From a virus: DNA of 32,000 nucleotides. The stretch's first letter is position 1; every line of letters begins with the position of its first letter. Positions 1 through 11,890 of this stretch are shown piece after piece. Where the stretch lies: IMG/VR virus record IMGVR_UViG_3300015608_001846, positions 90,001 to 122,000 of that record. One strand, written 5' to 3'. The notes beneath the pieces were generated by a model that was given only the letters and a program-made list of their open reading frames with translations, had not been told where the DNA came from and ran no database searches. A program made the translations under genes and the position numbers.

Positions 1-1354
1 GCTCCCAAGCTGGGAAACAGCCACGCGTCAAGGCCATGGCGACGCTGCTAGCGTGCGCCTCGGTCGCCAGACACTTGTAGATCTCTTCTGTCGTTACGAT
101 CGATTCATCAGAACCGTAACGTAGGCCCAACGCAGCCAGGGCATCGCCCAAGGCAGTGATGCCCGTACCGGTGCGCCGGCCAGTTCTACACGCAGTTTCG
201 ATCTTTCTCCATAGCGTCAATTCGCGTTGGCGTTCACTGATTGGTTCCGGATCGTCGTTCTCGATCTTTTTGATGATTCGATCGATCGCTTCTAGCTCGA
301 GGTCGACCAGGTCGTCCATCAGGCGCTGAGCCTTACGAACATGAACTCGAAACAACTCGAAGTCAAATGAGGCTGTGGGCAGGAATGCATCCCTCACGTA
401 GGAAAAAACGTTGATCAGCAACAGGCGACACGAGTCGTTTGCGCTAAGAGGCAACTCTGAACAAGGGTTGGTGCAGACCGTCTTGAAGCCCTTTTCAGAG
501 AATTCATCTGCCATCGATAGCGATAGGACGTTATCCCAAAACAGCACACCGGGTTCAGCTGACTGCCAGGCTGCGTGCATCATCTGTTGCCACAGTTGAC
601 GTGCCTTGATCGTCTTTGTGACGACTGCGTCGGTCGGTGTCGATTCACAAGGCCAACGCAAAACAAAGTCAGCATCGTTCTCAACCGCCTGCATGAACTC
701 ATCAGTGACACGTACTGATACGTTGGCACCAGTCACCCGCTTGAGATCGAGCTTGGCATTGATAAACGTCTCGACGTCAGGATGTCTGACGTCGATCGTT
801 TCCATCAATGCACCCCGGCGGCCGCCTTGAGCGACCTCACGTGTGGTGTTGGAGTAGCGATCCATGAAAATGAGGACGCCGTCTGACGTCGCTGCTGCAT
901 TCTTGACTGGAATCCCCGCTGGCCGGATGTTGCTGAGGTCGATCCCAACCCCGCCGCGGCGCTTTTGGATCTGCAGGATCTCTTCGTCTGCACGAGCAAT
1001 CGATCCGTACGAATCGAGCGGTGGTTCAATGACAAAACAGTTCGACAGCGATTGAACCTTGGTGTGGTTACCGATCGCAGACATCGGAGAACCCTGTGGG
1101 ACTAGGTAGCGAAAACGATCGAGCAACGCAAAGATCTCGTCCTCTGTCATGCACTCAGCGTCTGGGTACCGAGCCTCGATGCGAGCAAATTCACGTGCCA
1201 AGCGTCGATGCATCTCGGTGGGCGTCATCTCCAGCACCCGCCCATCGGCATCTTTTAACGCATACTTGCTGACGAAGACGTCAGCTGCCAGTTCATCACC
1301 ATCAAAATAAAACGTAGAGGCACGCTTGGCCTCCACGTAGGTTTGATCCTTCAT
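1..1354 (-). CDS. Ribonucleotide reductase catalytic (alpha) subunit, N-terminal ~451 aa; the gene runs off the left edge
   Basis: My own minus-strand translation from ATG 1354-1352 (GGAGAAA 9 nt upstream) stays open to nt 1. It reads MKDQTYVEAKRASTFYFDGDELAADVFVSKYALKDADGRVLEMTPTEMHRRLAREFA... RNR hallmarks are KRRGGVGIDLSNIRPAG, AQGGRRGALM and the active-site loop TVCTNPCSELPL. There is no ATP-cone. Class I versus class II (NrdJ) cannot be decided from this fragment. The ORF is missing from the ORF track because it has no stop inside the window. Confidence 0.85.
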   Translation of the reverse strand, partial: MKDQTYVEAKRASTFYFDGDELAADVFVSKYALKDADGRVLEMTPTEMHRRLAREFARIEARYPDAECMTEDEIFALLDRFRYLVPQGSPMSAIGNHTKVQSLSNCFVIEPPLDSYGSIARADEEILQIQKRRGGVGIDLSNIRPAGIPVKNAAATSDGVLIFMDRYSNTTREVAQGGRRGALMETIDVRHPDVETFINAKLDLKRVTGANVSVRVTDEFMQAVENDADFVLRWPCESTPTDAVVTKTIKARQLWQQMMHAAWQSAEPGVLFWDNVLSLSMADEFSEKGFKTVCTNPCSELPLSANDSCRLLLINVFSYVRDAFLPTASFDFELFRVHVRKAQRLMDDLVDLELEAIDRIIKKIENDDPEPISERQRELTLWRKIETACRTGRRTGTGITALGDALAALGLRYGSDESIVTTEEIYKCLATEAHASSVAMALTRGCFPAWE

Positions 1355-1429
1355 CCTAGCGGTTTCTCCATTCACGATGACCTCTGGGTGTGCGGTGTTG
1401 GGACCCGACGCAGTCCAGACGTCTGATAC

Positions 1430-2713
1430 CTATTCCTTCGAGTCCTGCATGCCCTCTTCGACAGCTGACGCAGATGAAACCGGTTGCTGTGAAAATGCAG
1501 GGTCATTTTTCAGTTCGTTCCACTTATTGAGCAAGGCACGTTTATACGCACGCTCATCAGTTGCAGTGGCTTCTTGCAACGATCCTTCTTTGCCTGTGAT
1601 GGTGAACTGCGAACGAGCAGTATCGATCTTGACTGGGTACACGATGCCGTCTCTACCTGCGCGGTTTTTGGCTATGTACAGCCTTCCCCACCCTGTCGAT
1701 TTTTCATGGGCCTTTCGAGAGACGCTCAGGACCACATCTGCGACCATTGCCTTGCCGTAGGCTTCACTCATGTTACCTAGGTCGACGATGTCAGAGTTCG
1801 AACCCTCCTTGTTCGACTGTGACGCAGTCCAGATCGGTAATTGCTTTTCACCCGCAAAGCCTCGCAGCTCTTCATAGATCAGCTTGAGCTCGTGGCGGAG
1901 TGAATCATACTGGCGGGTCGACCTCATGATGTCCGCGTAATCGATGATGATCAGTCCGGGTCGAAACCCCTTCAGCTCCAGGCGCTCGATGTGACTACGA
2001 ATCGTGTAGATCGTTGCCGTGTTTGTCGGAAAGTACTTGATCTTGAGGTGACCCAGCTTCATCGCTGCATACTTTTCCTTGATGTCTTTTTCTTTGTCAA
2101 TGACGTCATTCGAGTCAATCTCACACAGGTTTGAATCGTAACGGATTCCAACCTGGGTCTCTGACAGCTCAAACGTATAGTGCAACACGTCGATGTTGTT
2201 TCTTAACGCATTGGCACCCAACATCGTCAAGAAGTGACTGTTGTGTGACAACACGTTATCTGCGAAATATGAGTGTGCAATCGACACCTGCATGTCACAA
2301 AGACGCTCAACCTCGTCGATCAATTGTACCTCTTCAACCCTACGAATACCATCACGTGTAATGATCAGATCACCACGTGTAAGATCGCCCGTCTTTGTCC
2401 AAACAGACGAACTGCCGACCTTGCACAATACAATATGCTCAGGAGAGCATTGAAGGTATGGAATGCAGTCCTCGAGGACACCGATGCGTGTTGTTCGATG
2501 GAATACTCTCAACTGTCGTTCGGGCTTCGTCCAACGAAAACCTTCAATGGGATAGAATCCATCTAACGACAAAACCTCAACGCTCCATGTATTCGGGATG
2601 AAGCTGTCTCCTGATTCATCGGTCTGGTGCGCTTGCTGCGGGAAGTCGATCGCATCAAACAAATCGCCCAACCTGATCGTTTCCTGTACTTCACTGAATT
2701 CGATCGAAAGCAT
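1430..2713 (-). CDS. Replicative DNA helicase (T4 gp41/DnaB-like), C-terminal fragment: HINT/intein domain (2713-2240) followed by the C-extein (2239-1433)
   Basis: This is track ORF 1430..2749. The best start is ATG 2713, with AGGA 6 nt upstream. The first 158 aa look like a mini-intein: MLSIEFSEV..., block B CSPEH, block F CDMQVSIAHSYFA, block G VLSHN. Next comes the +1 Ser and the helicase core HFLTMLGANALRNNIDVLHYTFELSETQVG, Walker B LIIIDYADIM, SQSNKEG and KNRAGRDG. By eye this aligns to T4 gp41 immediately after its GKS P-loop. Confidence 0.85.
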   Translation of the reverse strand: MLSIEFSEVQETIRLGDLFDAIDFPQQAHQTDESGDSFIPNTWSVEVLSLDGFYPIEGFRWTKPERQLRVFHRTTRIGVLEDCIPYLQCSPEHIVLCKVGSSSVWTKTGDLTRGDLIITRDGIRRVEEVQLIDEVERLCDMQVSIAHSYFADNVLSHNSHFLTMLGANALRNNIDVLHYTFELSETQVGIRYDSNLCEIDSNDVIDKEKDIKEKYAAMKLGHLKIKYFPTNTATIYTIRSHIERLELKGFRPGLIIIDYADIMRSTRQYDSLRHELKLIYEELRGFAGEKQLPIWTASQSNKEGSNSDIVDLGNMSEAYGKAMVADVVLSVSRKAHEKSTGWGRLYIAKNRAGRDGIVYPVKIDTARSQFTITGKEGSLQEATATDERAYKRALLNKWNELKNDPAFSQQPVSSASAVEEGMQDSKE

Positions 2714-3732
2714 TCTTGATCCTCGATTTCTGCGAATCTTTGCCTGCACGCCACTCGCATTCCCATACCACCACGACGCAGTAACCCTCGTTCAACAGAA
2801 ACTTTAATTTCCGCGAGTTGCGATCTAAGATCTTTGAGACGTTACACCCATAGAGAGGATGCACATCTTCAGGATGCCAGTCCATGCAGTCGTGCGCGTG
2901 CCACATGCACCCGAAATGCTCGACTATAGTCTTTGTAACATCATCGAGCACATCAACATTCCAACGCTTCAATCCTACGTTGAACCTTGCATGCTTAGCA
3001 AACGACGCAACGAACTCTGCTATTTCCTTCTCGGGGATTGATCGCTGCGTTGGATGACGCAAGTGATGAGCGTTTGCGATCTTCTCAAGCGCTTTATCAG
3101 TGTGGTGTTTGCCGAACATCGGATGTTTTTTGCCCGTGCGACCGTAACAAGGCGTTAACATCGTAGCCTCTTCTATGGTCACTCCGGCACGCCGAGCGAT
3201 CGATACCAACGACATCGGATTACGATCGCTTGTGTTATTTGCGCTCCGGAGCGCACGAGTGGCATCGTTGTTGCCTTTTAATGACTGTTCTCGTTGAAAT
3301 TCTGCAATCTTTTTAATGGCCTCTTGTACGTTGTAACCTTTTCTTGTCCAATGCTTGATCTCTGAGGGGAAAGAACGCTTCTCAATGAATGCAGCGTGAT
3401 TGTTAGGATCGTTGAACCACAAGCGTGTTCGCTGTGCAGACTCAAGACGTTGTTTTTCTGACATTTGCTGCACTGCATGCCCTGGGAACATCTCTCGGTA
3501 ATCACGCATCACCATCGCATGCGTACGAGTAATGTGAGAGATCAAAGATCCCATCGATTCACGTTTGCATAGTTGGCATTGAAGTGGTTTCAACGAGTTC
3601 GTCTGTTTCGACGATGTCTCGAGCGTAGATGATGCCTCGTTTGGTGTTGATGCGTTCCCAGGGTTTGTAGCGTCGACCGTTAATGGTGATACACGTGTAT
3701 TTGACATGCACATAAGTATCACGATGTGAACA
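2240..3732 (-). mobile_element. Intervening element in the helicase Walker-A codons: intein coding sequence interrupted by a free-standing homing endonuclease gene ('fractured gene' arrangement)
   Basis: The N-extein ends GVGK (Lys codon 3735-3733). It is followed by Cys 3732-3730. The intein ends HN (Asn 2242-2240) and the C-extein begins with Ser 2239-2237. The three ORFs in this span use three different reading frames. Confidence 0.8.
2691..3722 (-). CDS. Free-standing homing endonuclease: C2H2 zinc finger + NUMOD3-like motif + Vsr-like (very-short-patch-repair type) nuclease domain
   Basis: Motifs are CQLCKRESMGSLISHITRTH (C2H2-like) and GKKHPMFGKHHTDKALEKI (NUMOD3-like). The C-terminal WNVDVLDD...IVEHFGCMWHAHDC...YCVVVVWECEW resembles the Vsr GCFWHGH and WE motifs. 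The true start is probably downstream of the track start, for example TTG 3593, five codons before the zinc finger. The reason is that 3594-3722 shows the genome-typical C-ending codons (atc, acc, aac, tac, gac, gtc) only in the helicase frame. Confidence 0.75.
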   Translation of the reverse strand: MILMCMSNTRVSPLTVDATNPGNASTPNEASSTLETSSKQTNSLKPLQCQLCKRESMGSLISHITRTHAMVMRDYREMFPGHAVQQMSEKQRLESAQRTRLWFNDPNNHAAFIEKRSFPSEIKHWTRKGYNVQEAIKKIAEFQREQSLKGNNDATRALRSANNTSDRNPMSLVSIARRAGVTIEEATMLTPCYGRTGKKHPMFGKHHTDKALEKIANAHHLRHPTQRSIPEKEIAEFVASFAKHARFNVGLKRWNVDVLDDVTKTIVEHFGCMWHAHDCMDWHPEDVHPLYGCNVSKILDRNSRKLKFLLNEGYCVVVVWECEWRAGKDSQKSRIKNAFDRIQ

Positions 3733-4365
3733 TTTCCCTACGCCGGTCGGTGCCACGATGCACCCGATCTCACCCGCTCCGAGCCCACCGTTCAAGATCT
3801 CTTTCTTGTCGAGCTCGGGTATGCCGGTCGATATCGCGTTGCGGGTTTGTCTCATGAACCTCGAATCGATGTCGTTGATGAAATCGTGGCCTAGAGAAGG
3901 GGTCGTCCCGACGCAGACAGCCTTCTTGATACCCTCAACGATCTCTTCATAACGTTCAGCTTGGATCTGATCGACGGCCGTCTCGAGCGCTTGCTTCAGT
4001 GCCTGCTTACGACAGAAATCGAGTGACTTCTCCTTGACGTAAGGAAGGTCGCCCGGGTCTGGGTTGGTTCGAACTCGCGTCAAGTAGTCCACAACTTGTT
4101 CACGAAGGATGACATCGGTGCCGACCTTCAGTTCGTCACGGACAATCGTGACGAGCATCTGCAACGACGGAAAGACCTTGTACGATCGCGAGTAGTTGAA
4201 GTAACGATCAGCGAGGAACACCAGGTACTTGAGGTCAAGGTACTCAACCTTGAAGACCTCCATCATCTGCTCGGCCCACACACGATCCATCAACAAGGCC
4301 TGGACAACCTTTTCCTGAAAGGCCTTTCCGTAGGAGTTAAACGACGCTTGCGTATTTTCGTTCAT
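3559..4365 (-). CDS. Replicative DNA helicase (T4 gp41/DnaB-like), N-terminal fragment (211 aa) ending inside Walker A, plus a 57-aa Cys-initiated tail
   Basis: The extein ends ...ELDKKEILNGGLGAGEIGCIVAPTGVGK. The tail is CSHRDTYVHVKYTCITINGRRYKPWERINTKRGIIYARDIVETDELVETTSMPTMQT, followed by a stop. The start of the tail, C-x3-D-T-x-V, resembles intein block A. The start ATG 4365 overlaps the FEN stop as ATGA. Confidence 0.85.
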   Translation of the reverse strand: MNENTQASFNSYGKAFQEKVVQALLMDRVWAEQMMEVFKVEYLDLKYLVFLADRYFNYSRSYKVFPSLQMLVTIVRDELKVGTDVILREQVVDYLTRVRTNPDPGDLPYVKEKSLDFCRKQALKQALETAVDQIQAERYEEIVEGIKKAVCVGTTPSLGHDFINDIDSRFMRQTRNAISTGIPELDKKEILNGGLGAGEIGCIVAPTGVGKCSHRDTYVHVKYTCITINGRRYKPWERINTKRGIIYARDIVETDELVETTSMPTMQT

Positions 4366-9811: not shown

Positions 9812-11032
9812 TCAAGCATGTACATTGACGTCTGACACCGTGAGGTGAAACTTCTGAACGTATCCTGGAACGCTGACGCTGTTGATCGCTTTCACGACAT
9901 CGACATCATCAGCTGGCACGTCGAGGAACAGCCCATCGTGCAACAAAAAGATCGGTCGGACGCTGGGCGCACTTTCAACCAACCTAGCGATGACCTGTCG
10001 GAAACCGAGAAGGGCAACGTCGACGCCCGTTGATTGAGCATAGTAGTTCAACATCACGTGGTTCAACGGCTCATCAATCAACACGTGTCGACCGTAACGA
10101 TTGACGATGTGACCGGATGACAAAAACTGCGCCCGGATGCGTTCAAGCAGCTCAGAAGTGTTGAAGTACGACCTGACTCGCGCCATGTATCGATCGAGCT
10201 CCTTGCTACCCATGTTGAGTCGAACAGCTAGGGCATGCCTAGAGCTGCCGTACAGCTCACAGATGACAATGCCCTTGACGACCTGGCGTGGGGCATCACC
10301 GACCTCACGGGCGATGTGCGAATACAGGTCGGGTTCATCGCACCGTCGACCGGCTTCATACAACAGGATCCTCGGTTCTAAGGCGGCAAAGTCGATCGCC
10401 ATGATCCTGCCACCTGTCGTCGACGGTGCGATGATGCCTCGTTGTTCCTTTTTAAGCGTCAGTATGTTAGGACCAGATGCTACTGTCATCCGACCCGTCA
10501 AGGTCCCAAACCGGTTGTACGACACTTGACCAGCAAAACCGTGACGGTCGGGTTCGAACGTTGCCAAGGCATGTAGGTTGCCCGCGCCAGAATCGACTGC
10601 AGCCTGCCACTGGCTTCGATCGATACGTGCTCGGTGCAGGCTGCCCAAAACCTCATTCCCTGGCACCCAAGTGTCATTGTAATAATTCACAGGCAAGGAA
10701 GGGACGGCCTCTACCGCTCGAGCCACCAGTGTTTTTACAAAGTCACGGTATGCTGCATCAGGCATCATCCTGTGCCATGGCGGGTGTGATGACCAGTTCG
10801 AACCGGACAACAATGGCACTGTCGCCTTGACAAACCTCTCCGGCGGGTTGATGTCGATGGCAACTTGACCCAACCTCAACAGGGTGTCTAGACAACGCGA
10901 GTGACCAGGCTTGACAGTCCCTGTCAGGTGCCAAGAGTCGGGTGGCACCGTCGACGTCCAGACAAAACGTGCATCATCACAGACGATGTGTCGATCGGTG
11001 CCCAACAGGCACGAGTCGATGCAAACTCGCAT
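9812..11032 (-). CDS. Family A DNA polymerase, polymerase domain only (406 aa, no recognisable 3'-5' or 5'-3' exonuclease domain)
   Basis: Motifs are YNRFGTLTGRMTVASGPNILTL (TGRLSS/PNLQN-like), IMAIDFAALEPRILL (motif A), RQVVKGIVICELYGSS (motif B), YYAQSTGVDVAL and IFLLHDGLFLDV (motif C). Confidence 0.85.
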   Translation of the reverse strand: MRVCIDSCLLGTDRHIVCDDARFVWTSTVPPDSWHLTGTVKPGHSRCLDTLLRLGQVAIDINPPERFVKATVPLLSGSNWSSHPPWHRMMPDAAYRDFVKTLVARAVEAVPSLPVNYYNDTWVPGNEVLGSLHRARIDRSQWQAAVDSGAGNLHALATFEPDRHGFAGQVSYNRFGTLTGRMTVASGPNILTLKKEQRGIIAPSTTGGRIMAIDFAALEPRILLYEAGRRCDEPDLYSHIAREVGDAPRQVVKGIVICELYGSSRHALAVRLNMGSKELDRYMARVRSYFNTSELLERIRAQFLSSGHIVNRYGRHVLIDEPLNHVMLNYYAQSTGVDVALLGFRQVIARLVESAPSVRPIFLLHDGLFLDVPADDVDVVKAINSVSVPGYVQKFHLTVSDVNVHA

Positions 11033-11074
11033 AGTACGTACAGATCTTAGCCTACGCGTGTAGCAGTTTACACA

Positions 11075-11113
11075 TCACTTCTTTGACTGTGTATCGATCT
11101 CTTGTACTGATTT
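11075..11113. repeat. Direct repeat copy A (39 bp), downstream boundary of the HEG cassette
   Basis: The plus-strand sequence is tcacttctttgactgTgtatcgatctcttgtactgaTtt. It matches 11887-11925 at 37 of 39 positions. Confidence 0.9.
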
Positions 11114-11890
11114 GTGCCTTCGTCGCGGCGCTGACAAGATCCCTAGTTCAACGAGCCTCTCACGGTTCCATAGTTCAGAGTTCTTGTATTTTTCATGGAA
11201 CCATTCCCACTTTTCCTTTCCGACGTGACCACCTTTTCGTTCAAAAGTTCCCTTGATCTCAATGTACGTGTCTGCAAATGTACCGTCCAAGACGTAAAGA
11301 TCAACGTAGTACGTTCGTCCTTGAGGCGTCTGGAACGCTAGTTGCCATCGAAAATCGATCTGATTCGTGTTTAACCAATCCACGACGGCTAGTTCATAGC
11401 CACCAACGCAATGAATGTCTTCGCCAGACTTCCAATGTTTTACGACCGTGCAAAACCGGCTAGCAGCGATTCCATTTAATCTTCCTCGAGCTGGATGTCC
11501 GCTGTATCCATTTAAGACGGTGTACGGCATCGCTACAAATTCACCATGATCTTTGTCAAGAAATCTCATCTTTACGTGTGAATTCACATAACACTGTCCG
11601 GGTGACAATGTTACATTGTCACCGTGATGAAGGGTTAATTTTTGCTCGATCTCTTCTGGCGTTAAGAGAGAACGTTTCCAATTAACATGCTTGTGACCCG
11701 TGTGTCGGCGACCGTTGCACACAGATTTGACCTGAGCATGCCATACGCCATACGTTTTATCGATAAACCGCGCACGTTTATTCGCTGAAATATACGACGA
11801 TTCGTCAATCGTAACAGTGTCACCGTGTACTTGTCTAAGCCTAGACTTGATCTCTTCGATCGAAATTTTTCTTGACACAAAGATTGTCAC
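11075..11890 (-). CDS. Free-standing homing endonuclease-like protein: two N-terminal HGD-type DNA-binding repeats + PD-(D/E)XK nuclease core
   Basis: The repeats are IEEIKSRLRQVHGDTVTIDESSYISANKRARFIDKTYGVWHAQV and PEEIEQKLTLHHGDNVTLSPGQCYVNSHVKMRFLDKDHGEFVAMP. The C-terminal core has GYELAVVDWL ... YYVDLYV ... TYIEIKG (E ... D ... ExK). The GTG start overlaps the upstream stop. The last 12 codons duplicate the end of the upstream structural gene. Confidence 0.65.
   Translation of the reverse strand: MTIFVSRKISIEEIKSRLRQVHGDTVTIDESSYISANKRARFIDKTYGVWHAQVKSVCNGRRHTGHKHVNWKRSLLTPEEIEQKLTLHHGDNVTLSPGQCYVNSHVKMRFLDKDHGEFVAMPYTVLNGYSGHPARGRLNGIAASRFCTVVKHWKSGEDIHCVGGYELAVVDWLNTNQIDFRWQLAFQTPQGRTYYVDLYVLDGTFADTYIEIKGTFERKGGHVGKEKWEWFHEKYKNSELWNRERLVELGILSAPRRRHKSVQEIDTQSKK

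Follow-up and report, generated by a model that had tools for sequence, protein, structure and literature searches.

How is a replicative helicase made from a gene that is broken within its Walker A motif, with an intein-like segment on each side of the break and an endonuclease gene in between? This question is raised by a minus-strand region of a 32,000-nucleotide (nt) stretch of viral DNA (IMG/VR record IMGVR_UViG_3300015608_001846, positions 90,001 to 122,000), which we refer to as the window. Inspection of open reading frames (ORFs) identified three minus-strand genes in series: a DnaB-like helicase N-fragment followed by an N-terminal intein piece (IntN), a homing-endonuclease gene (HEG) whose ORF overlaps both flanking helicase ORFs, and a C-terminal intein piece (IntC) followed by the helicase C-fragment. 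We consider it likely that these genes encode a functional, naturally split class-1 intein within a “fractured” phage DnaB-like helicase gene. An initial annotation of this locus had described the C fragment as a complete Hedgehog/intein (HINT) domain with Met in the place of Cys1, so that N-terminal strands appeared to be present redundantly on both pieces. The ORFs, coordinates, lengths, and motifs that it listed were all confirmed by our ORF and translation check. Homologous proteins and loci are designated here by P and L numbers.

Helicase fragments and intein pieces

The two helicase fragments together account for one DnaB-like helicase profile. Residues 11 to 211 of the N-extein matched positions 158 to 366 of PHROG 19 (DnaB-like helicase), and residues 161 to 391 of the C-fragment matched positions 369 to 599, a region that abuts the N-extein match; the C-extein also matched Pfam DnaB_C (E value, 6.4e-14). 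The N-fragment ends with APTGVGK followed by CSHRDTYVHV...ETDELVETTSMPTMQT and a stop, with the Cys codon at 3732..3730, confirming that the catalytic Cys sits on the N fragment and is followed by block A. The ORF that runs from the ATG at 2713 to 1430 encodes 427 amino acids (aa), the first 158 of which end in VLSHN and are followed by SHFLTMLGANA. Because homologues without the interruption (P0079 and P0086) read GVGKSH[MF]LTF, we placed the intein inside the Walker A P-loop, a site already described as DnaB insertion point b (PMC4760082).

The tail that follows GVGK on the N-fragment is genuine coding sequence. The frequency of C at third codon positions over the tail was 0.39 in the helicase frame versus 0.21 and 0.25 in the other frames, in agreement with the C-ending codon preference noted earlier. 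Across 11 loci, for which synonymous sites were saturated, the ratio of nonsynonymous to synonymous polymorphism (pN/pS) was 0.36 in the intein frame versus 1.11 and 1.13 in the two alternative frames. The HEG frame across the IntN overlap, with a pN/pS of 1.11, resembled the third frame and showed no constraint at the protein level. Purifying selection is confined to the intein frame. The tail is also conserved as a protein among homologues. From the best 120 of 602 N-fragment homologues, we extracted tails by a pattern after GxGK and obtained 95 distinct tails, 86 of which were exactly 47 aa long, the 47-aa pattern being C-x4-T-x-I-x-[IV]-x-Y-x2-I-x-I-N-G-x2-Y-K-P-W-[DE]-x-[IV]-x-T-x-R-G-x-[IV]-[FY]-A-R-D-[IV]-x-E-x-D-E-L-x-stop. 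Cys was the first residue in 95 of 95 tails, but the extraction pattern demanded Cys. Cys1 also opened 13 of 13 intein sequences in one alignment (A2), two of which were uninterrupted.

A tail of 57 aa was found in only one of the 95, P0002, which is the protein of the window itself. The TGA that usually follows DEL-x is absent in the window, and ten further codons are translated. By eye, a 3-nt indel relative to L016 appears to have removed this TGA, and the window is one codon shorter in the HEG frame.

All sequence features of a class-1 intein were found across the two pieces, including Cys1 and block A after the N-extein, a block B His, a block F Asp, and a block G His-Asn followed by Ser. 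H93, D140, H157, and N158 of IntC were invariant or nearly so, and S159 (the +1 residue) was conserved. Block B reads CSPEH, with S for T, and aligns to CSEEH of gp41-1, with H93 invariant. In a phmmer search, IntC residues 80 to 158 aligned with residues 54 to 128 of the gp41-1 intein, block B included (E value, 1.3e-3). Block B therefore lies on the C piece, and the split is not at the canonical site. The two ORFs, extein-IntN and IntC-extein, are separate, intact, and conserved.

These features bear on whether the intein still works. The initial annotation had raised the possibility that a HEG landing at the extein-intein junction killed splicing, so that the helicase would work as two pieces or not at all. 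In a variant of this reading, the pieces would assemble non-covalently, and the intein halves would serve only as docking domains. A fragmented phage ribonucleotide reductase provides a precedent for non-covalent pieces (PMC3045599), one relative (L001) is clearly degenerate, and the window IntN has its unusual 10-aa extension. However, the break lies between GVGK and S within Walker A, a motif that must be continuous, and the HEG is located 47 codons (57 here) inside the intein rather than at its junction. Furthermore, Cys1, the His of block B, the Asp of block F, the His-Asn terminus, and Ser+1 vary little or not at all within the family, both ORFs are intact and under purifying selection, and the locus belongs to a conserved replication module. 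The conserved catalytic residues together with both ORFs speak against an inactive intein and against assembly through non-covalent contacts only, and we regard loss of splicing as decidedly unlikely.

The HINT fold and the position of the break

We modeled the window IntN joined to IntC with short extein flanks by AlphaFold2 (AF2) with a 35-sequence alignment, and IntC alone with a 25-sequence alignment. The fused model had a mean predicted local distance difference test (pLDDT) score of 82.4, with values of 89 to 97 over IntN 7-37 and IntC 1-20. In this model, IntN 7-17 formed a single long beta2 strand (E60-70; pLDDT of about 96), IntN 20-22, 27-30, and 33-36 formed a small beta meander, and a helical turn was present at 39-42. 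Averaged per 10-residue block, pLDDT was 94 and 89 over IntN 18-37 and 67 over IntN 38-47; it was about 56 over IntN 48-57, and values of 56 to 67 over the 10-aa extension indicated disorder. IntC 4-14 (IEFSEVQETIR) formed a long strand (E114-124) and IntC 15-21 (LGDLFDA) a helix (H125-131), both with a pLDDT of 93 to 97.

A Foldseek search of the fused model against PDB returned VidaL (6vgv) as the first match (E value, 1.8e-8; 220 alignment columns) with a template modeling (TM) score of 0.83 normalized to VidaL. All 48 matches at an E value of ≤1e-3 were inteins or related HINT domains (bacterial intein-like and hedgehog), and the predicted structure has the HINT horseshoe fold. VidaL was also the best PDB match of the fused-family profile (E value, 3.1e-9), with profile positions 79 to 200 aligned to VidaL residues 29 to 143 and IntC residue ~32 corresponding to VidaL residue 29. 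A phmmer search of PDB with insert-free P0188 gave an alignment that fell short of the VidaL N terminus. Four MAFFT alignments combining tails of N-fragments with C-fragments were discarded, because the tails had been drawn to the GDxIxTxxG motif of the C lobe or to the IntC head; alignments A9 (without N-fragments) and A10 were retained.

When IntC was modeled alone, the HINT core was kept, but residues 1 to 14 became coil (pLDDT of 75) and the TM score to VidaL fell from 0.83 to 0.61 (113 columns). The C fragment therefore does not appear to be a complete HINT domain. Both models suggest instead that the IntC head is beta3/alpha1, ordered as a strand only with IntN present, and that beta1-beta2 is supplied by IntN, so that Met would not occupy the position of Cys1. 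The predicted break, after beta2 and before alpha1, is that of an atypical S1-type split. An S1-type IntN is about 15 to 16 aa (15 to 37 aa for all atypical splits), compared to 47 aa in this family and 57 aa in the window. The IntN is longer than the known range because a conserved, folded 30-aa module follows beta2.

The initial annotation had also offered a very N-terminal split in which strand 1 would come from the tail, and residues 1 to ~45 of the C piece would be vestigial, redundant N-terminal HINT strands. The split itself stands in outline. The proposed redundancy draws on the resemblance of MLSIEFSEV...IRLGDLF to C-L-x-x-x-x-S-x-V...I-x-x-G-D-L, and MAFFT puts the insert-free beta2 of P0188 (CVSIRY) onto MLSIEF. 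However, IntC 1-45 contained 14 invariant columns out of 53 in a five-member family alignment (M1, L2, I4, E11, G16, F19, F24, T31, D32, G35, D36, S37, I39, and N41) and was predicted at a pLDDT of 93 to 97, and IxxGDLF constitutes the single beta3/alpha1 of uninterrupted relatives. An [IV]x[IV]GxLF motif aligned over 25 C-fragments and with the uninterrupted relatives as well. The segment EVQETIRLGDLF is the canonical strand-helix that follows block A and is the sole copy, with no second one present.

The MLSIE residues have a different source of constraint. The 3' end of the HEG reads SRIKNAFDRIQ before its stop, and the Shine-Dalgarno sequence and ATG of IntC lie inside these last codons, M-L-S-I-E-F-S being the +1 reading of K-N-A-F-D-R-I-Q. 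A HEG/IntC overlap of 14 to 29 nt was kept in every HEG-carrying locus, and ML[ST]I was found again in very distant C-fragments. Uninterrupted relatives have different residues at this position. Thus, MLSIE is held constant because its codons overlap the HEG stop region, and the likeness of MLSIEF to block A appears to be a match of beta-strand pattern. We consider a vestigial copy in the IntC head highly improbable.

The same gene overlap is relevant to another possibility, that the IntC head is a placeholder, with MLSIEFSEV acting as a self-chaperone that folds back to fill the vacant beta1-beta2 groove until IntN displaces it. The head does have a beta-strand pattern like that of block A, and atypical split inteins include a partially folded IntC with a cavity to fill (PMC11766414). 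However, the AF2 model of IntC alone showed coil at residues 1 to 14 and no docked strand, and the overlap accounts for the constraint on MLSIE. A placeholder function thus seems very unlikely.

For the split class-1 intein that we favor, we propose the following mechanism. The HEG would have invaded the coding DNA of the intein itself at the outer tip of an extended beta2-beta3 hairpin; the 3' end of the HEG supplies the C piece with its ribosome-binding site, start codon, and opening residues, MLSIE. Once both pieces are translated, the long beta2 of IntN would pair with the N-terminal strand of IntC to complete the HINT fold. Cys1, His93, Asp140, His157-Asn158, and Ser+1 would then perform ordinary class-1 trans-splicing, joining GVGK to SHFLT so that the Walker A motif is whole again and the helicase active. 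A further-reaching proposal, which we find possible if on balance doubtful, is that the 30-aa module and the elongated first strand of IntC form a dedicated docking “zipper.” Under this proposal, the family would represent a third natural atypical-split architecture (S1-like with a 47-aa IntN), in which the HEG brings its own repair kit of ribosome-binding site, start codon, and first IntC residues, and the package would have spread through a lineage of large uncultured phages.

Several points weigh against a functional split intein as described above. The likely function, trans-splicing with restoration of GVGKS, is judged from the conservation of the catalytic residues. Pairing of beta2 with beta3 is deduced from differences in secondary structure and pLDDT between two models, and the IntN columns of the AF2 alignment are shallow, filled by the window and P0190 and otherwise by a few divergent relatives with uninterrupted inteins. 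MAFFT can place the accessory module on the C-lobe GDxIxTxxG motif, and some of this internal repetitiveness is real. The 10-aa IntN extension, present only in the window, could in principle impair assembly. Finally, the HEG can be given only a probable start, close to the IntN stop, with the first ATG downstream of that stop at 3554.

Table 1. Features of the split helicase locus in the window
Feature	Positions	Strand	Basis or details
N-fragment ORF	4365..3559	minus	268 aa: 211 aa of helicase to APTGVGK, then 57-aa tail CSHRDTYVHVKYTCITINGRRYKPWERINTKRGIIYARDIVETDELVETTSMPTMQT and stop
N-extein, first 211 aa of DnaB-like replicative helicase, to Walker A GVGK	3733..4365	minus	ORF and PHROG 19
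IntN 1-17 (CSHRDTYVHVKYTCITI), Cys1, block A, and predicted beta1-beta2	3682..3732	minus	Directly after GVGK; AF2 strand
IntN 18-47 (NGRRYKPWERINTKRGIIYARDIVETDELV), family-specific accessory beta module on the end of beta2	3592..3681	minus	Conservation, pN/pS, AF2
IntN 10-aa extension (ETTSMPTMQT)	3562..3591	minus	Stop codon 3559..3561; confined to window lineage
Free-standing HEG, longest ORF (343-aa open frame)	2691..3722	minus	Pfam NUMOD3, weak Vsr, PHROG
HEG/IntC overlap junction	2691..2724	minus	Shine-Dalgarno GAGGA 2724..2720; IntC ATG 2713; HEG stop 2693..2691
IntC head, residues 1-21 (MLSIEFSEVQETIRLGDLFDA), predicted beta3 and alpha1 of HINT fold	2651..2713	minus	AF2 fused model
IntC residues 22-158, TDESGDS family-specific loop, N-lobe hairpins, blocks B/F/G	2240..2650	minus	phmmer; hmmsearch against PDB
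Block B (CSPEH)	2449..2435	minus	IntC 89-93
Block F (ERLCDMQV...HSYF) and block G (VLSHN)	VLSHN ends at 2240	minus	On IntC
C-extein, Ser+1 (Walker A serine) and RecA-like ATPase domain	1430..2239	minus	268 aa and stop; Pfam DnaB_C

The homing-endonuclease gene and related loci

The free-standing HEG lies between the intein halves with all genes on one strand, the organization of a fractured gene. Its product matched Pfam NUMOD3 (E value, 5.7e-6) and PHROG endonuclease (E value, 6e-8) and homing endonuclease (E value, 1.6e-4) families and contains a zinc-finger-like CxxC...HxxxxH motif. A match to Pfam Vsr (E value, 0.033) scored 14.5 bits against a cut-off of 27 and is thus below the family cut-off; an ExFGxxWH...VWExxW pattern was recognized by eye. 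The HEG frame stays open through the 3' end of IntN in the window (3592-3722) and in L010, L015, L016, and L018. In many loci, the HEG frame begins at a conserved ATG that spans the Asn and Gly codons (AAT GGA) of ING, 89 nt upstream of the IntN stop, and gives MENSTSPG…; the window lacks this ATG, as the codons there are AAC GGT.

Pattern-based scans of viral and metagenome contigs recovered 14 loci. C-fragments of 410 to 430 aa were recovered by an exhaustive protein search only, the first two IntC searches having found almost none. A HEG between helicase halves was also present in L002, L005, L010, L011, L015, L018, L021, and L023. In the L021 and L023 subfamilies, IntC identity was just 37 to 38%, yet IntN was still 47 to 48 aa and the HEG was of the same type, and these subfamilies share with the window the gene order of flap endonuclease, helicase-N, endonuclease, helicase-C, and ribonucleotide reductase. 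The locus forms part of a conserved replication module on contigs of up to 277 kb. A blastn search of the locus against GenBank phages gave no match, and tblastn of the N-fragment against GenBank phages gave only helicases with <32% identity and no annotated relative; none of the isolated phages in GenBank has a close relative. Taken together, sequence comparisons indicate that the arrangement is old and widespread, with the window as one member.

Alleles with a contiguous intein, as anticipated in the initial annotation, were found at the same site both with and without the 30-aa module. Those with the module included P0190, in which GVGK is followed by CVFSRTIIPIRYEQIKINGQSYKPWDKINTQRGTIYAKDIKEVERSLTEEDIEIGDLFEQLGF, L009, and L020, all of which hold both of the supposedly redundant segments in tandem. 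Those without the module included P0188, in which GVGK is followed by CVDPRECVSIRYRTGDEVILEDIELGKLFERLGY, P0207, and P0228. More distant uninterrupted members had longer insertions at the module position, with [KD]PW[DE] in P0203, P0246, and P0250 and KPFD in P0226. We also considered whether the accessory module is a read-through into HEG-associated DNA, which is ruled out by purifying selection, the confident fold, and the occurrence of the module in uninterrupted inteins.

These uninterrupted relatives also allow us to evaluate the suggestion that the locus is a recombinant of two different fractured alleles, with duplicated N-terminal elements as a result. The pieces total 215 aa, a considerable length for a mini-intein, and both bear a hairpin-like motif. 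However, the extra length consists of the conserved insertion module and the lineage-specific 10-aa read-through, and the two segments occur in tandem within the single inteins of P0190, L009, and L020. Moreover, a matching N piece and C piece were found together in every locus examined, distant subfamilies included, and an N piece of 47 aa occurs even in very divergent subfamilies. The same arrangement recurs in divergent subfamilies, and the locus is therefore no recombinant oddity; we consider recombination between alleles scarcely credible as its origin.

Two split loci, L004 and L007, lack a HEG, and its last codons are retained clearly in L004 and probably in L007. Other relatives showed signs of decay or replacement. 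L001 (4600-7300, a scaffold with N runs) contains a degenerate copy in which the last ~30 IntN codons are left and minus-strand genes replace the N-extein upstream; its HEG is frameshifted near the 3' end and its C-fragment is interrupted, and junction artefacts in the scaffold make misassembly possible. In L019 (1466-1510), the last IntN codons and stop are directly repeated (TDELT-stop-KTDELT-stop-K) in a 21-nt tandem duplication. A 348-nt spacer precedes IntC in this locus, with an unrelated 129-aa frame in place of the putatively Vsr-like HEG, perhaps as a scar of HEG loss or replacement. A second, uninterrupted intein occurs in the helicase C-extein of L005 (6896-9259), L019, P0186, P0187, and P0190, inserted between WTA and SQSNK, starting with C and ending in HN. 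Among these second inteins, some are mini-inteins and others contain a domain of the HNH type; at this position, the window reads WTASQSNKEG without interruption.

Comparison with known inteins and neighboring broken genes

The initial annotation knew of no natural split intein whose C piece retains nearly the whole fold. This view is out of date, as VidaL, PolB16 OarG, and the terminase inteins provide such cases (PMC13014065, PMC10189870, and PMC2677866); the 122-aa C piece of one terminase intein has every N motif but N1 (PMC2677866). Two atypical sites are described: S1, directly after beta2, as in VidaL (16-aa IntN) and PolB16 (15 + 168 aa), and S2, after alpha1, as in AceL-TerL and GOS-TerL with an IntN of 25 to 37 aa (PMC13014065 and PMC10189870). 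Over all described natural atypical split inteins (VidaL, PolB16, and TerL), IntN is 15 to 37 aa (PMC13014065).

VidaL, the best profile and structural match, shares with the window intein a class-1 Cys1 and a break right after beta2, with alpha1 and blocks B, F, and G on the C piece (PMC13014065). In contrast, the window IntN is 47 to 57 aa with the 30-aa module, and its IntC differs by a longer beta3 and an additional TDxxGDS loop. Identity between the two was 15 to 23% in the structural alignment. The host gene of VidaL is presumably also a T4-like helicase; a literature search for this host gene turned up none. PolB16 OarG likewise has an S1-type split and a very long C piece with nearly the whole fold (PMC10189870), but it is cysteine-less (Ser1/Ser+1), resides in a PolB gene, has its extra strands elsewhere, and matched with a TM score of only 0.71. 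AceL-TerL, GOS-TerL, and Cat are also atypically split and metagenomic; GOS-TerL lies in a fractured gene, and block G (YYTNDILSHN) closely resembles that of the window. However, these terminase inteins (S2; IntN of 25 to 37 aa) carry their IxIxDL helix on IntN, whereas the IRLGDLF helix of the window is on IntC.

Dassa et al. 2009 (PMC2677866) described fractured genes, among them gp41 helicase genes accompanied by genes for Vsr-like endonucleases. The gp41-1 to gp41-9 inteins share the one-strand, three-gene layout with a free-standing HEG, which is Vsr-like in gp41 and putatively so in the window, and the HEG-less gp41-7 is comparable to L004 and L007. Unlike the window intein, they are canonically split (IntN of 88 to 105 aa and IntC of 33 to 54 aa) and occupy other insertion points. 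In gp41 and other fractured genes, a 27- to 51-nt non-coding spacer with a regulatory hairpin precedes the HEG, whereas the frames in the window overlap. The HEGs of fractured genes belong to the Vsr-like (or GIY-YIG) family, and the Vsr score in the window was below the cut-off. DnaB-b inteins resemble the window intein in their P-loop insertion, and uninterrupted relatives of the window intein exist (P0188 and P0190). In bacteria, however, DnaB-b inteins are in one piece, many of them with an endonuclease domain inside at the canonical site.

A literature search found no description of a helicase family with a 47-aa IntN. The conserved 30-aa beta module on the N piece, and with it an IntN of 47 aa (57 aa here) versus the natural 15 to 37 aa, thus appears to be new. 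Few natural splits lie near the N terminus, and such split inteins are sought after as protein-ligation tools; this large family (at least 95 distinct N pieces) provides a different solution, in which the N piece carries block A and a small folded module. The series of uninterrupted inteins with and without the module and split inteins with and without a HEG could serve to study how invasion by a HEG fractures an intein and how its halves keep their compatibility. For annotation, the two “helicase fragments” should most likely be read as a single functional replicative helicase.

Other broken genes were observed in relatives and nearby. Terminase-like fragments P0130, P0135, P0153, P0161, and P0176 start with an atypical IntC (…YYTNDILSHN, followed by T) and end with an atypical IntN, e.g., CFRFNTIINIMNKETGLKEEITIGDFFLRLQKERDEEINA. 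The terminase gene of the P0130-type fragments seemingly exists in at least three pieces via two atypically split inteins. On the minus strand of the window at 9812-11890, a family-A DNA polymerase seemingly lies in separate ORFs; a 406-aa ORF matches part of Pfam DNA_pol_A, and a 271-aa ORF adjoins it upstream, which may represent a split polymerase gene. A partial gene for the ribonucleotide reductase large subunit follows the helicase C-fragment (1-1420, minus strand), and the ribonucleotide reductase gene in L002, L004, L005, and L021 carries inteins with HNH domains.

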